This document shows, piece by piece, positions 1,089 through 5,446 of a stretch of 5,446 nucleotides of DNA (the stretch's first letter is position 1; every line of letters starts with the position of its first letter). The stretch lies in the IMG/VR virus record IMGVR_UViG_3300029171_000136, positions 1 through 5,446 of that record; one strand, given 5' to 3'. This DNA comes from a virus. A program made the position numbers and the translations under genes. The notes under the pieces are model-generated. The model had not been told where the DNA came from and did not search any database. It saw nothing but the letters and a program-made list of their open reading frames with translations.

Positions 1089-1114
1089 TAGAAAAGAAAA
1101 AGGGGGGGGCGATG

Positions 1115-1188
1115 CCTATCGCGAAACGCGAAAGGCCCGGGCTATCCGGTCGTGGCTCCCTTCTATCCCTATCGCGCTTACGCAAGAG
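1115..1188 (+). repeat. Two copies of an imperfect repeat of about 21 nt, each with a small GC hairpin, plus four CTATC motifs
   Basis: cctatcgcg occurs at 1115-1123 and again at 1168-1176. Unit 1 is cctatcgcg-aaa-cgcgaaagg (1115-1135) and unit 2 is cctatcgcg-ctta-cgcaagag (1168-1188). CTATC occurs at 1116, 1142, 1163 and 1169. Confidence 0.75.
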
Positions 1189-1191
1189 TAA

Positions 1192-1277
1192 CCCGCAAGG
1201 GGGCCCCGACTCCAAAAAAAATTACCTGTCACGCCCCCTGTGGGGGGGATTTTTTAAGTCGTTACCCCTCTTGCGGG
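1192..1277 (+). repeat. Inverted repeat forming a 12-bp stem with one bulge around a 61-nt interior
   Basis: cccgcaag (1192-1199) is the reverse complement of cttgcggg (1270-1277). After a bulged T1269, gggg (1200-1203) pairs with cccc (1265-1268). The interior holds the C5/G7 hairpin and the T6 run. Confidence 0.65.
1234..1255 (+). terminator. Short GC hairpin plus T6, resembling an intrinsic terminator downstream of VP2
   Basis: ccccc (1234-1238), tgt loop, ggggg (1242-1246), then gga and tttttt (1250-1255). The stem is only 5 bp with a 3-nt loop. C5 can alternatively pair with the distal G-run: 1105-1111 pairs with 1232-1238 over 7 bp. Confidence 0.4.
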
Positions 1278-1314
1278 GCACCCTGTAGAAAAGGAAACCT
1301 AAAACTCAAAAAAT

Positions 1315-2893: not shown

Positions 2894-4972
2894 ATGAGCA
2901 ACAAGGTAACAATAGGCGGAGACCGACTAGGAGCGGGAAAACGCGAATCCGTAACGATGCACGGATATAACAGAAGCAATCACGACCTTAGCTACGCATG
3001 GAGGTCGACATTGGCAGCAGGAGTATTAACTCCCTTCCTAAAAAAAGTAGCACTACCAGGCGATACATTTGACATTGACTTACACGCAAGCGTATTAACA
3101 CAACCAACAATAGGGCCACTATTCGGAAGCTTCAAACTGCAGTTAGATGTATTTCAAGTACCAATCAGATTATACCAAGGCATGTTACACATGAACATGT
3201 TAGGAATCGGGATGGACATGAGTGCAGTAAAGCTGCCAGTATTCACTCTGACAGGACAAGCTATGAAAAGTATTAACGACTTCGAATACATTAACCAATC
3301 AAGCGTATTAGCGTACCTAGGCATAAGAGGCTTAGCATCAAGAGGGTACCAAGGGTTAGTAGTAAGAAACTTCAACGCTATACCATATCTAGCTTACGTT
3401 GACATATTCAAAAACTACTACGCAAACAAACAGGAAGACAACGCGTACGTAGTACACAGCACGCCAGCAAGAACACTTTCGGGAATAACAAACACAAACG
3501 CATTGGTAGGGTCTACACACAGCCCAACAACAACCGCGATATTGGTTACGAACATAAACTCACCGACAGTCGCAATGGTATACTCAACAACGTTCGAACC
3601 AGTAGTACAAATAAACATTCAATTCCCAATAGGCGAAGTAGTAAACGGGCTAACAATTGACGACTTCACAATAAACAGCCAACCAATAGGTGGCGGAGGT
3701 GGAGCATCACAAAGACCCGCGTCAGATTTATTCACGCGGATAGAAATCGTAGGAATAAACGGCACGAACGCAACAATAAACCTAAGAGGACCAAAATGGA
3801 TTATCGGAAGCAGCAGAGAAATCTCAGCAGCATACTGGACAAGCAGCGCAAACGCAATAAAAGGTACCATAGACTTGTACCCATTCAGACTAAAAGACAT
3901 TGACGATTGTAGAGTAGCAATACTACAAAACAACAACGCGGCAGCGTTCAACCTGTCTACATGGGCAACAACGAACAACAAAGGACCATACAAATTCCTA
4001 TTCGAAGCGATACAAAGCGGAACACAACCGAACATAACTCGAACAACATCGCTTGAAAAAAACATGGAGGGACTATTGGTAAAAACTTACAATAGCGATC
4101 TATTCAATAACTGGATATCGACAGAATGGATTGACGGACCCAACGGCATCGCAGCAGTAACAGCAGTAGACACGACAGGGAACAGTTTCACAATAGACGA
4201 ACTGAACCTAGCTAAAAAAGTTTACAACATGTTAAACAGAATCGCGCTAAGTGGTGGAAGTTATGACGATTGGTTAGATGCAGTATACGACCATGACAGA
4301 CAACGAAGCGCAGAAAATCCAATGTACATGGGTGGATTAATCCAAGACGTACAATTTGAAGAAGTAATAAGCACCGCAGCAACAACAACAGGCGATTTAG
4401 GACAAATAGCGGGAAGAGGAAGGCTAGGAAACTTCAAAAAAGGTGGTAAAGTAATCGTAAAAGTAAGCGAACCGAGTTATATAATCGGTATAGCATCATT
4501 GACGCCAATAATCGACTACAGCCAAGGCAATGACTGGGATAACAACCTAGTAACTATGAACGACTTACACAAACCAGCATTGGACGGAATAGGTTTCCAA
4601 GACCTAATAACCGAACAAATGTACTGGGGAACAAGCTACCAAGGAGTCGCAGACGCAACCAGAGCAACAGTAAAAGCAAGCGCAGGTAAACAACCGGCAT
4701 GGATCAACTACATGACAGCGGTAAATAAAACGTTTGCAAACTTCGCAAACAAAAAAGACCAAATGTGGATGACACTAAACAGACAGTATGAAGTCAATTG
4801 GGCATCACAAACTGACCAAGCAATAAGAGACCTTACAACGTACATCGACCCAACGAAGTACAACAACGTGTTCGCGGACACAAGGTTAGACGCACAAAAC
4901 TTCTGGGTACAAATAGGGGTAGGAATCGAAGCACGAAGAAAAATGAGTGCAAAGGTAATACCAAACCTATAA
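2894..4972 (+). CDS. VP1: Microviridae major capsid protein VP1 (F-like jelly-roll)
   Basis: The ORF encodes 692 aa. The N-terminal block GGDRLGAGK...YNRSNHDLSYAWRSTLAAGVLTPFLKKVALPGDTFDIDL...PTIGPLFGSFKLQLDVFQVPIRLY matches the conserved pattern RS.(F/H)(D/N)LS...T...G.L.P...LPGD...FFVP.RL of gokusho/alpavirus VP1. It is the largest ORF and sits in the expected position. Confidence 0.95.
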   Translation: MSNKVTIGGDRLGAGKRESVTMHGYNRSNHDLSYAWRSTLAAGVLTPFLKKVALPGDTFDIDLHASVLTQPTIGPLFGSFKLQLDVFQVPIRLYQGMLHMNMLGIGMDMSAVKLPVFTLTGQAMKSINDFEYINQSSVLAYLGIRGLASRGYQGLVVRNFNAIPYLAYVDIFKNYYANKQEDNAYVVHSTPARTLSGITNTNALVGSTHSPTTTAILVTNINSPTVAMVYSTTFEPVVQINIQFPIGEVVNGLTIDDFTINSQPIGGGGGASQRPASDLFTRIEIVGINGTNATINLRGPKWIIGSSREISAAYWTSSANAIKGTIDLYPFRLKDIDDCRVAILQNNNAAAFNLSTWATTNNKGPYKFLFEAIQSGTQPNITRTTSLEKNMEGLLVKTYNSDLFNNWISTEWIDGPNGIAAVTAVDTTGNSFTIDELNLAKKVYNMLNRIALSGGSYDDWLDAVYDHDRQRSAENPMYMGGLIQDVQFEEVISTAATTTGDLGQIAGRGRLGNFKKGGKVIVKVSEPSYIIGIASLTPIIDYSQGNDWDNNLVTMNDLHKPALDGIGFQDLITEQMYWGTSYQGVADATRATVKASAGKQPAWINYMTAVNKTFANFANKKDQMWMTLNRQYEVNWASQTDQAIRDLTTYIDPTKYNNVFADTRLDAQNFWVQIGVGIEARRKMSAKVIPNL

Positions 4973-4976
4973 AACA

Positions 4977-5027
4977 CCACTGGGGGGCGGAACCGAGGAC
5001 GGTACAGGGTAGCCGCAAACTTAAAAA
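4977..5027 (+). other. GC-rich spacer element after VP1 that carries an inverted copy of the 3' part of the 1101-1288 island
   Basis: It contains G6 (4982-4987) and a small hairpin accg-agga-cggt (4992-5003). The reverse complement of 5003-5027 is tttttaagtttgcggctaccctgta. This is collinear with 1251-1259 tttttaagt and 1271-1287 ttgcggggcaccctgta. Confidence 0.7.
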
Positions 5028-5042
5028 CAAACAAAATCAAAA

Positions 5043-5366
5043 ATGTTTAAAACCAACGGACACATTTCAACCGCTCTGGGAGCGGTAGAAGTAACAGAAG
5101 GCGAATCAATCGAAGAAAAAGTAGAGAGAATCGTAAACAACAAAGAGCCCATAAAAGACGGAGCACCTCCAATGTTCACAGAACGAGGTAAAGGAGTACT
5201 AGCAAGTACAAACATAAGAACGGATAGATTTTTAGTCGCAATAGAAGCCACTGAAAAAATCGAAAAGTCTTACAAAGCAAGACGAGAAGAAAGACAAACA
5301 ACAGACGGGAAACCCGAGTCAATAGATGGCAAGGACGAAACGTCTACAAACAGTGAAAAAAAATAA
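5043..5366 (+). CDS. Small VP3-like protein (putative internal scaffolding protein). It spans the circular junction.
   Basis: The ORF encodes 107 aa. The block EEKVERIVNNKEPIKDGAPPMFTERGKGVLASTNIRTDRFLVAIEATEKI resembles a conserved segment (KEPI.DGAP..YTER..GV....(D/N)IRTDRF..A) that I recall in small proteins encoded next to VP1/VP2 in Bacteroidota-associated microviruses. The start context is A-rich, atcaaaaATG. The functional label comes from memory and has not been searched. Confidence 0.65.
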   Translation: MFKTNGHISTALGAVEVTEGESIEEKVERIVNNKEPIKDGAPPMFTERGKGVLASTNIRTDRFLVAIEATEKIEKSYKARREERQTTDGKPESIDGKDETSTNSEKK

Positions 5367-5446
5367 ATTCAAGAGTGGTACGCATCTATTCTATAGTATC
5401 AAGTAGGTGTAGTACCACTTTTTAAAAAAAAGCGCGAAAAATATGG
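5336..5446. repeat. Terminal direct repeat, copy 2. It contains the hairpin copy at 5371-5423 and the first 4 nt of the VP2 ORF at 5443-5446.
   Basis: It is identical to 1-111. Confidence 0.97.

Follow-up and report, generated by a model that had tools for sequence, protein, structure and literature searches.

A horizontally exchanged non-coding cassette in a microvirus genome carries an extended relative of the orphan Rfam motif Flavo-1 next to a predicted intrinsic terminator

The stretch of DNA analyzed here (the window: IMG/VR virus record IMGVR_UViG_3300029171_000136, 5,446 nucleotides) holds the complete circular genome of a microvirus (5335 nt), and its two ends repeat the same 111 nt. 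The genome is 41% G+C and 43% A, and its recognizable genes are all encoded on the + strand. A G+C-rich non-coding island occupies the 226-nt gap between the pilot protein gene, VP2, and a 67-amino-acid open reading frame (ORF) that precedes the Rep gene, VP4. Our analyses indicate that this island joins an ordinary terminator to an extended, mobile and hitherto unrecognized variant of Flavo-1 (RF01705), an orphan Rfam motif. The features of the island, and then the genes, are as follows.

about 1101-1278, + strand: whole cassette shared with the distant microvirus L167 (blastn, 93.2% identity)
1102-1109, + strand: G8 run at the 5' edge of the cassette, pairing with 1154-1163 in an alternative helix (RNA and DNA minimum-energy folds)
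1109-1175, + strand: core, an extended Flavo-1-like element (exact family pattern and covariance model R1)
1109-1113 with 1171-1175, + strand: P1 helix, GCGAU with AUCGC (family consensus)
1114-1136, + strand: P2 hairpin, outer GCC/GGC, inner UCGCG-AAA-CGCGA (compensation in L167 and covariation in the family)
1137-1138, + strand: joiner CC
1139-1141 with 1167-1169, + strand: P3 helix, GGG/CCC
1144 with 1164, + strand: covarying pair A1144-U1164
1144-1164, + strand: distal P3 arm, with an A-U closing pair, a 3x3 pyrimidine internal loop UCC/UUC, GG/CC and a loop
1192-1277, + strand: long-range bulged stem predicted to enclose the terminator, 1192-1203 pairing with 1265-1277 (RNA and DNA minimum-energy folds)
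1225-1233, + strand: CCUGUCACG motif, directly 5' of the terminator stem
1234-1255, + strand: predicted intrinsic terminator, a C5-UGU-G5(7) stem-loop, A and U6, with A8 (1214-1221) upstream (consensus scan)
1256-1278, + strand: 3' tail of the cassette, conserved, AAGUCGUUACCCCUCUUGCGGGG (lies in the 93%-identical block, whose match to L167 stops at 1278)
108-1088, + strand: pilot protein, VP2
1315-1518, + strand: 67-amino-acid ORF (orf67)
1566-2699, + strand: Rep, VP4
2894-4972, + strand: capsid protein, VP1
5043-5366, + strand: 107-amino-acid ORF

Positions 1101-1288 consist of 20% A, 31% C, 29% G and 20% T, and the resulting 60% G+C agrees with the 59% that an earlier note on this DNA, made from the letters alone, had counted by hand. 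The only + strand runs of six or more G are the G8 at 1102, the G7 at 1242 and the G6 at 4982, exactly as in that note; the sole + strand C5 run (at 1234) and the sole T6 run (at 1250) both lie inside the island. Folded as RNA, 1089-1314 reached -85.7 kcal/mol (z = -2.73; 2 of 200 dinucleotide shuffles did as well), and folded as DNA it reached -46.3 kcal/mol (z = -3.92; 0 of 200), so that both folds passed the comparison with shuffled sequences that the note had proposed. The minus-strand RNA scored z = -2.34. These scores, together with the mutually exclusive folds discussed below, bear out the description of the island as non-coding, structured and rich in competing helices, and every helix that had been listed is present in the sequence. 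The island is found with 100% identity in four independent Logan assemblies (SRR4039779-82), which excludes an assembly chimera. The note had also proposed looking for near-identical genomes that lack the island; every near-identical copy has it, which leaves no discriminating case.

That the island is an exchangeable cassette, an aspect overlooked in the earlier note, is seen from a comparison with a distant microvirus, L167. By blastn, positions 1103-1278 of the window match positions 937-1112 of L167 at 93.2% identity, and the flanks are unalignable, which defines the unit of exchange as approximately 1101-1278. The proteins of the two phages are 52% (VP1), 55% (VP4) and 31% (VP2) identical, and their coding DNA is 66-70% identical. 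The differences within P2 are compensatory (CGCG/CGCG in the window, GCCG/CGGC in L167); in the terminator the loop changes from TGT to TTT and the stem and T6 are unchanged. Judged from these alignments, the cassette more plausibly reflects a recent exchange between distant microviruses than extreme constraint, and its structure is under selection. It is well supported by the comparison that the island is a non-coding cassette of approximately 178 nt, accessory to the genome and exchanged horizontally.

The wider set of relatives agrees with an accessory role. We used 80 IMG/VR microviruses whose VP1 is approximately 50% identical to that of the window. Intergenic regions are A+T-rich in most of them, blastn of the island against them gave no match, and blastn of the genome and of the island against GenBank phages found neither a relative nor a match to the island. 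Of 83 related microviruses, only three have the core by model R1, described below: the window, L167 and L004. L004 has only the 5' part of the island, placed after VP4 instead of before it, and in L002 the VP2 and VP4 genes abut with zero gap. The borders of the cassette in the window and in L167 (AGGGGGGGGCGAT... and ...CUUGCGGGG) have no inverted repeat by inspection. The homology of L004, L006 and L039 was first recognized by eye, and the pattern CGCGAAACGCG..CCCGGGC retrieved mostly chance matches in G+C-rich phages.

Other G+C-rich islands were seen among the relatives. L006 (4230-4330) and L039 (464-560) have a different structured island in the VP2-VP4 gap, in which a 15-mer, ACCTGTCACGTACCT, is common to both and two GAAA-type hairpins are compensated (GCCG-AAA-CGGC versus CCCG-AGA-CGGG, and CCG-AAA-CGG versus CCATTTG-AAA-CAAATGG). 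A third type, in L001 (4310-4450) and L007 (560-790), shares CCCCTCGSCGGGGAGSCAGATTWMGCCA and is negative with model R1, so that non-homologous structured cassettes fill the same gap in different relatives. A Rep-based scan of IMG/VR returned zero confirmed loci. The closest Rep relative, P0002 (77% identity), is represented by Logan contigs only, which break 128 nt upstream of VP4; both of them (L119 and L120) stop at the same base, where an island would start, and this common end may mark a place where the assembly graph broke at a structured region that is variable or repetitive.

To follow the core beyond these phages, search patterns were derived from the blocks shared with L004 and used to scan IMG/VR, GTDB genomes and JGI metagenomes. 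The scans gave 199 distinct pattern matches, 164 of which form P1 when folded, a set in which a few coding-region matches due to chance remain. In all, the family numbers at least 150 distinct copies. Its members share the order GCGAU, P2, CC, GGGCU, N, a variable arm, N', AUCCC, U and AUCGC. The exact family pattern (GCGAU, P2, CCGGGCU, the arm and AUCCCUAUCGC, in this order) matches the window once, at 1109-1175, and matches 0 of 200 shuffles. A covariance model, R1, built without the clade of the window, recovered the window at 42.2 bits (E = 7e-7 over 420 kb), L167 at 42.4 bits and L004 at 34.1 bits, and nothing further in the 83 related microvirus genomes.

Base-pair changes support the predicted fold at several positions. 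In P2 the pairs (1120,1130) and (1121,1129) are CG and GC in the window and GC and CG in L167, a double compensatory change that confirms the cgcg-aaa-cgcg hairpin (1120-1130) of the earlier note. Across the family, P2 is a hairpin of variable length with 159 Watson-Crick, 1 G-U and 2 A-C pairs (n = 162). The N:N' position is paired in 94 of 114 distinct members and takes all four Watson-Crick types. In a 34-row seed alignment 97% of cells were paired, compared with 42-51% when the partners were slid, and the covariation score was 0.239, compared with 0.051 in shuffles; the seed had been pre-filtered for the P2 hairpin and for N:N' pairing, which makes these figures partly circular, and it is therefore the unfiltered P2 and N:N' counts that carry the covariation argument. 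P1 and the GGG/CCC helix had no room to vary, since the search patterns fixed both. The proposed check of conservation and covariation thus held for P2 and for the core. One hairpin in the note did not survive it: gcgat/atcgc at 1109-1122 is broken in L167, and the family instead pairs GCGAU at 1109-1113 with AUCGC at 1171-1175.

Approximately 23 near-invariant nucleotides are kept across phyla and phage families, and the AUCC...UUCU subtype of the arm also occurs in metagenome and alphaproteobacterial copies. Membership of the core in a large family of structured elements related to Flavo-1 is well supported. Known RNA classes did not account for it: a transfer RNA (tRNA) and transfer-messenger RNA search of the window and 12 family loci found none, and by-eye comparison with the hammerhead, hepatitis delta virus-like and twister ribozymes, the fluoride and thiamine pyrophosphate riboswitches, RNase P P4, tRNA-like structures and IS110 bridge-RNA patterns gave misfits, with no support from Rfam.

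The relation to Flavo-1 rests on the opposite strand. A scan of the window against Rfam (E <= 10, both strands) returned no Flavo-1, only a chance microRNA match, and the window copy lies below the Flavo-1 gathering threshold of 42 bits. Other members of the family matched Flavo-1 on the opposite strand, at 41.8 (L389), 34.1 (L446) and 30.0 bits (L190). Rows of the Flavo-1 seed (Weinberg et al. 2010, PMC2864571) read GCGUUAGGGAUA...UAGCCCGG; reverse-complemented, the family blocks CCGGGCUA...UAUCCCUAACGC give the same letters. The core hairpin of Flavo-1, GGGAU...AGCCC (GGGCU...AUCCC here, on the other strand), is present in the window as GGG 1139-1141 with CCC 1167-1169, the A1144-U1164 pair and the UCC/UUC loop. 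From these correspondences, it is well supported that the reverse complement of our family is an extended form of Flavo-1. A structured RNA was one of the functions that the earlier note had offered; the core is indeed homologous to an Rfam 'sRNA' family, with the qualification that the Rfam matches are to relatives only and lie on the opposite strand.

The Flavo-1 motif was reported almost solely from Flavobacteria, other Bacteroidetes and a few spirochaetes (PMC2864571), Rfam curates it as 'Gene; sRNA', and a transcriptome study of Flavobacterium psychrophilum found its matches in both orientations relative to transcripts, many of them without transcription (PMC9723704). An alternative explanation for the island would be an independent trans-acting non-coding RNA, i.e. 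a small RNA (sRNA) gene carried on many mobile elements, for instance a decoy or regulator of a conserved host factor or defence system, for which orientation would be free. The Rfam curation fits such a gene, as do the conserved junction nucleotides with variable covarying stems that are typical of functional RNAs, the UNCG and GNRA loops on one strand, and the occurrence in either orientation, in unrelated phages and in tiny genomes. The window cassette is itself sRNA-like, with a structured 5' domain, an A/U-rich single strand and a terminator with a U-tail. However, no promoter-like site was found upstream, the conserved block starting at the G-run; the CCUGUCACG motif has no complementary target within the phage; the G-U and A-C counts cannot settle the strand; and many F. 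psychrophilum copies are untranscribed (PMC9723704). We rate this explanation as rather improbable.

The strand on which the element acts is the point on which the sequence signals conflict. The loops on the window strand are of RNA type: P2 loops are overwhelmingly cUNCGg and distal hairpins are often GNRA. On the other strand the cUNCGg loops read cGNAg. Rare variants of P1 (ACGAU, GCAAU, GCGAC) make A-C pairs in this orientation, which correspond to G-T on the other strand, and the counts of G-U and A-C pairs and the forward and reverse folding energies point in different directions. Since most copies in single-stranded DNA (ssDNA) phages are antisense to the genes, it is the Rfam orientation that lies on their virion strand, and the clade of the window is the exception.

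The phage copies illustrate this. Ten microviruses of several lineages carry the element, three in sense orientation (the window, L167 and L004) and seven antisense to the genes. All 54 of the 54 Pf-like inoviruses (Pseudomonas prophages and phages) carry it antisense, always in the 134-nt gap between PA0719 and PA0720, the latter being the Pf ssDNA-binding protein gene that adjoins the element. In the Pf1/Pf4-type prophage AY324828.1 (L372), the whole of this gap (1563-1696) is essentially the element, in antisense. A search of the Pf literature found no description of a PA0719-PA0720 element. Tailed-phage contigs carry it as well, in one example a few nt 3' of the gene that follows a terminase-like gene, and in several following the stop codon of a same-strand upstream gene by a few nt; in further contigs it lies near DUF932, SLT or Toprim-AAA_25 primase-helicase genes. 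Pfam, PHROG and PADLOC annotation of the element-adjacent genes in tailed-phage contigs gave no consistent partner.

The presence of the element in both ssDNA phage families, with the same virion-strand orientation in seven microviruses and in all 54 inoviruses, suggests that it might act at the level of ssDNA, the folded incoming strand recruiting host RNA polymerase, primase or PriA for complementary-strand synthesis. The DNA fold scores better than the RNA fold (z = -3.9) and stable hairpins are present on the virion strand; the stems are almost purely Watson-Crick and the P2 loops are cGNAg on that strand; and some neighbours (DUF932, SLT, Toprim-AAA_25, the Pf ssDNA-binding protein) are ssDNA transfer or replication genes. 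Nevertheless, the virion strands of the window, L167 and L004 carry the orientation opposite to that in the other ssDNA phages, approximately 80 related microviruses replicate without the element, and it also occurs in tailed-phage contigs, in bacterial chromosomes and in a DDE-type miniature inverted-repeat transposable element (MITE). An essential complementary-strand origin is unlikely because of the relatives that lack the element and the unfixed orientation, and the origin suggested in the earlier note is weakened by the same distribution (3 of 83 microviruses, a gapless L002, both orientations and non-ssDNA contexts). An ssDNA-level priming element likewise seems rather improbable to us.

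The genome offers a better candidate for an origin, a hairpin followed by AAAAGCGCGAAAA that is found in 50 of 82 genomes. This site lies at 43-106, just upstream of the VP2 start (and again at 5378-5441, through the terminal redundancy), and comprises the hairpin GTGGTAC...GTACCAC with T5 and then AAAAAAGCGCGAAAAATATG; its 12-mer AAAAGCGCGAAA is present in 50 of the 82 genomes (81 relatives and the window). As a core cis-element, for example an origin, a promoter or a packaging signal, it is a much stronger candidate than the island. After VP1, at 4973-5042, comes a second short non-coding stretch rich in G+C, which contains the G6 run (ACTGGGGGGCGGAACCGAGGACGGTACAGGGTAGCCGC).

In bacteria, copies of the family were found in Bacteroidota, Alpha-, Beta- and Gammaproteobacteria, Planctomycetota, Acidobacteriota, Leptospira and Selenomonas. 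One Chitinophagales metagenome-assembled genome (MAG), SRP173033_co1_345 (L378-L452), has at least 19 copies, each inside a MITE of approximately 330 bp. This MITE has perfect 20-bp terminal inverted repeats (TAGGGCTTGCTAAATAACTC and GAGTTATTTAGCAAGCCCTA) and holds the element approximately 25 nt inside its left end, so that the element is cargo of the MITE and not the MITE itself. Sphingobacteriia contigs carry tandem copies approximately 65-70 nt apart. Alphaproteobacterial copies share a 3' extension, CTCCGSTCGCTGSGCTCSCTGCGCGCTMCGCTTGCC (L374, L393, L400, L416, L421 and L425, and also L432, L436, L439, L441 and L448), so the repeat unit is longer in that lineage. A second metagenome scan recovered family members and no relatives of the island.

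Such multicopy occurrence is what would be expected if the island were a selfish passenger, a dispersed repeat spreading with, or as, mobile DNA, lodged in a permissive intergenic gap of a few microviruses and useless to the phage, with perhaps only its terminator put to use. The MITE copies of the Chitinophagales MAG (at least 19) and the Sphingobacteriia tandems fit this explanation, as do the variable orientation and position among microviruses, the many relatives without the element, and the near-identical island in two distant phages, which suggests recent transfer. It sits less easily with the size-limited and usually compact genomes of microviruses, with the compensatory P2 changes between the window and L167, which show continued selection on structure, and with a core that is nearly invariant across phyla, unlike lineage-specific REP (repetitive extragenic palindrome) or MITE repeats; moreover, the borders of the window island have no terminal inverted repeats. 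On balance we think a pure passenger unlikely, while giving it some weight.

One bacterial copy bears on a different possibility. In L393 a 1.7-kb IS110-family insertion (3441-5146; DEDD_Tnp_IS110 and Transposase_20) lies 28 nt 3' of an element copy. L425, which has the paralogous copy, lacks the insertion, and this IS110-family element may target the conserved repeat. By extension, the island could be a recombination or attachment site, a DNA site for phage integration or a landing pad for site-specific mobile elements. Besides the L393 insertion 28 nt from its copy, the identical cores in chromosomes of many phyla could serve as homologous or site-specific partners, and P1 and P3 read the same on both strands, which would suit a double-stranded or cruciform site. 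Against this, no prophage junction of the window phage or of L167 and no bacterial match to the whole island were found among the approximately 490 loci fetched, Pf phages integrate at tRNA genes with their own integrase and carry the element mid-genome, and the compensatory changes in P2 favour a folded single strand over a duplex. The attP or dif-like site suggested in the earlier note gained no support: among the loci fetched in the element-pattern scans, in which dif-like motifs were not searched for, there were no junctions or bacterial copies of the island, and it is the core alone that recurs. We consider a recombination site very unlikely.

The 3' half of the island has a simpler identity. 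A consensus scan found only one + strand terminator-like site in the whole genome, at 1234-1248 with the T6. The earlier note had described the C5-TGT-G5 hairpin and T6 correctly and had overlooked that they form a consensus intrinsic terminator. On sequence criteria, the identification of the 3' part of the cassette as a classical intrinsic terminator, with further hairpins beside it, is well supported. The bulged 12-bp stem that the note had drawn around it (1192-1203 with 1265-1277) is part of the minimum-energy fold, and the comparative evidence is neutral, since the pair G1199-C1270 is C.U in L167, with both members changed, which neither supports nor breaks the stem.

The CCUGUCACG motif beside the terminator recurs in L167, L006 and L039, within their G+C-rich islands of non-coding DNA. 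In the microvirus L233 it appears as CCTGTCACG-C5-TAC-G6 on the strand antisense to the genes; there (approximately 4430-4455, minus strand) the site reads CCTGTCACG-CCCCC-TAC-GGGGGG, with 16 nt identical to window 1224-1239, and lies approximately 890 nt from the Flavo-1-like element of L233. A metagenome scan for CCTGTCACG with the C5/G5 hairpin was empty and did not recover the window itself either. For the rest of the 3' half, L167 was the sole match among the approximately 490 fetched loci. A search for targets of the CCUGUCACG 'seed' within the phage gave chance 7-mers only, and no promoter-like site was found upstream of the cassette in the window.

At the 5' edge, the G8 run (1102-1109) introduces the competing fold. 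The earlier note was right that the helices of the island include mutually exclusive ones, and wrong about the partner of the G-run, which is 1154-1163 and not 1232-1238; pairing with 1154-1163 rules out the P1 and P3 helices of the family fold. According to the folding models, the G8 run can trap the core in this alternative fold. L167 also has a G-run. Five + strand G-tracts (G8, G3, G5, G7 and G4) lie within 177 nt, at 1102-1278, and a long-loop G-quadruplex there is conceivable.

Our preferred reading, to which we assign a probability of approximately 0.35, is that the cassette acts on the + sense transcript as an RNA 3'-end module that ends the VP2 message with a structured 3' end. Lying in sense orientation immediately downstream of VP2, it would form the 3' end of the VP2 transcript. 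RNA polymerase would be halted at the C5/G5-U6 hairpin, ahead of orf67 and the Rep gene, and the 3' end left by the densely paired junction element upstream would resist nucleases. A structured small RNA of approximately 150 nt, derived from the 3' untranslated region (UTR), might be released, in which the single-stranded A8-UUA-CCUGUCACG segment beside the terminator would stay accessible.

Several observations weigh against this 3'-end module. The alternative fold with the G-run is better than the family consensus fold by 11 kcal/mol as RNA and 4.6 kcal/mol as DNA. The conserved block extends 22 nt beyond the U-tract, which a pure terminator module does not explain. P2 is almost without G-U pairs (1 of 162), and the reverse strand is the more stable one in 129 of 164 members when special-loop bonuses are turned off. 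The cGNAg loops of that strand belong to a class of very stable DNA triloops, and both this and the reverse-strand stability would fit a structure at the DNA level. Seven of the 10 microviruses and all 54 Pf-like inoviruses have the element antisense to their genes, and because of this placement in most ssDNA phages a cis-acting role in the 3' UTR cannot be the general function of the family. Finally, Rfam models Flavo-1 on the opposite strand, and its matches in F. psychrophilum are bidirectional and often untranscribed (PMC9723704).

A more speculative view would unite these contexts. Flavo-1 could be one face of a cross-phylum functional module that is traded among the two ssDNA phage families, tailed phages, MITEs and chromosomes and engages a universal host machine. 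Such a module may serve as an anti-defence decoy, may be a new RNA that catalyses a reaction or binds a ligand, or may carry a portable signal for priming or replication of single strands, and microviruses would swap it as a ready-made cassette. We regard this as improbable, yet worth stating.

Since 2010 Flavo-1 has been without an assigned function, and it was regarded as restricted to Bacteroidetes; its extended form is now seen across phyla. The extension consists of the extra helices P1 and P2, carriage by a transposon and presence in the smallest phage genomes. The Pf phages of Pseudomonas aeruginosa, among them the tractable Pf4, provide a medically relevant system in which the motif can be tested. 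The window and L167 also document the exchange of a non-coding cassette between microviruses that share only about half of their protein residues, a kind of exchange that is rarely sought.

The island can be compared with several known systems. Like other intrinsic terminators, its 3' hairpin has a G+C stem of 5-6 pairs, a 3-nt loop, a U6 within 1-2 nt and an upstream A-tract, and stem and U-tract are kept in L167; unlike them, the site is embedded in a larger conserved block and is perhaps enclosed by the predicted long-range stem. With the complementary-strand origins (the n'/PriA site of phiX174, G4 oric, the M13 minus origin and plasmid sso or ssi sites), it shares the form of an intergenic block of 70-180 nt, made up of stable hairpins, in an ssDNA phage. 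The types of plasmid sso are non-homologous and have a cassette-like distribution among relatives, as does the island. However, the element is unconserved in close relatives, varies in orientation and occurs in non-ssDNA contexts, which sets it apart from these origins; no sequence similarity to them was seen, no search aimed at it having been made.

The repeats known as REP and BIME (bacterial interspersed mosaic element), and the cargo of MITEs, are likewise multicopy and intergenic, lie in either orientation, are sometimes in tandem and can be MITE-borne. REP elements stabilize the 3' ends of upstream mRNAs, which is the role proposed here for the cassette. REP families are, however, lineage-specific simple palindromes, whereas the present element is a three-way junction with approximately 23 near-invariant nt and a cross-phylum distribution.

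The closest comparison is with Flavo-1 itself. Both are irregular hairpins with conserved internal loops and a variable tip, and both are orphans that occur in either orientation relative to transcripts. They differ in that the Rfam model spans the P3 arm only, without the P1 and P2 of the three-way junction, and in that the Rfam orientation falls on the gene-free minus strand of the window. In addition, the family described here extends to many phyla, to Microviridae, to Pf Inoviridae, to tailed phages and to a MITE.

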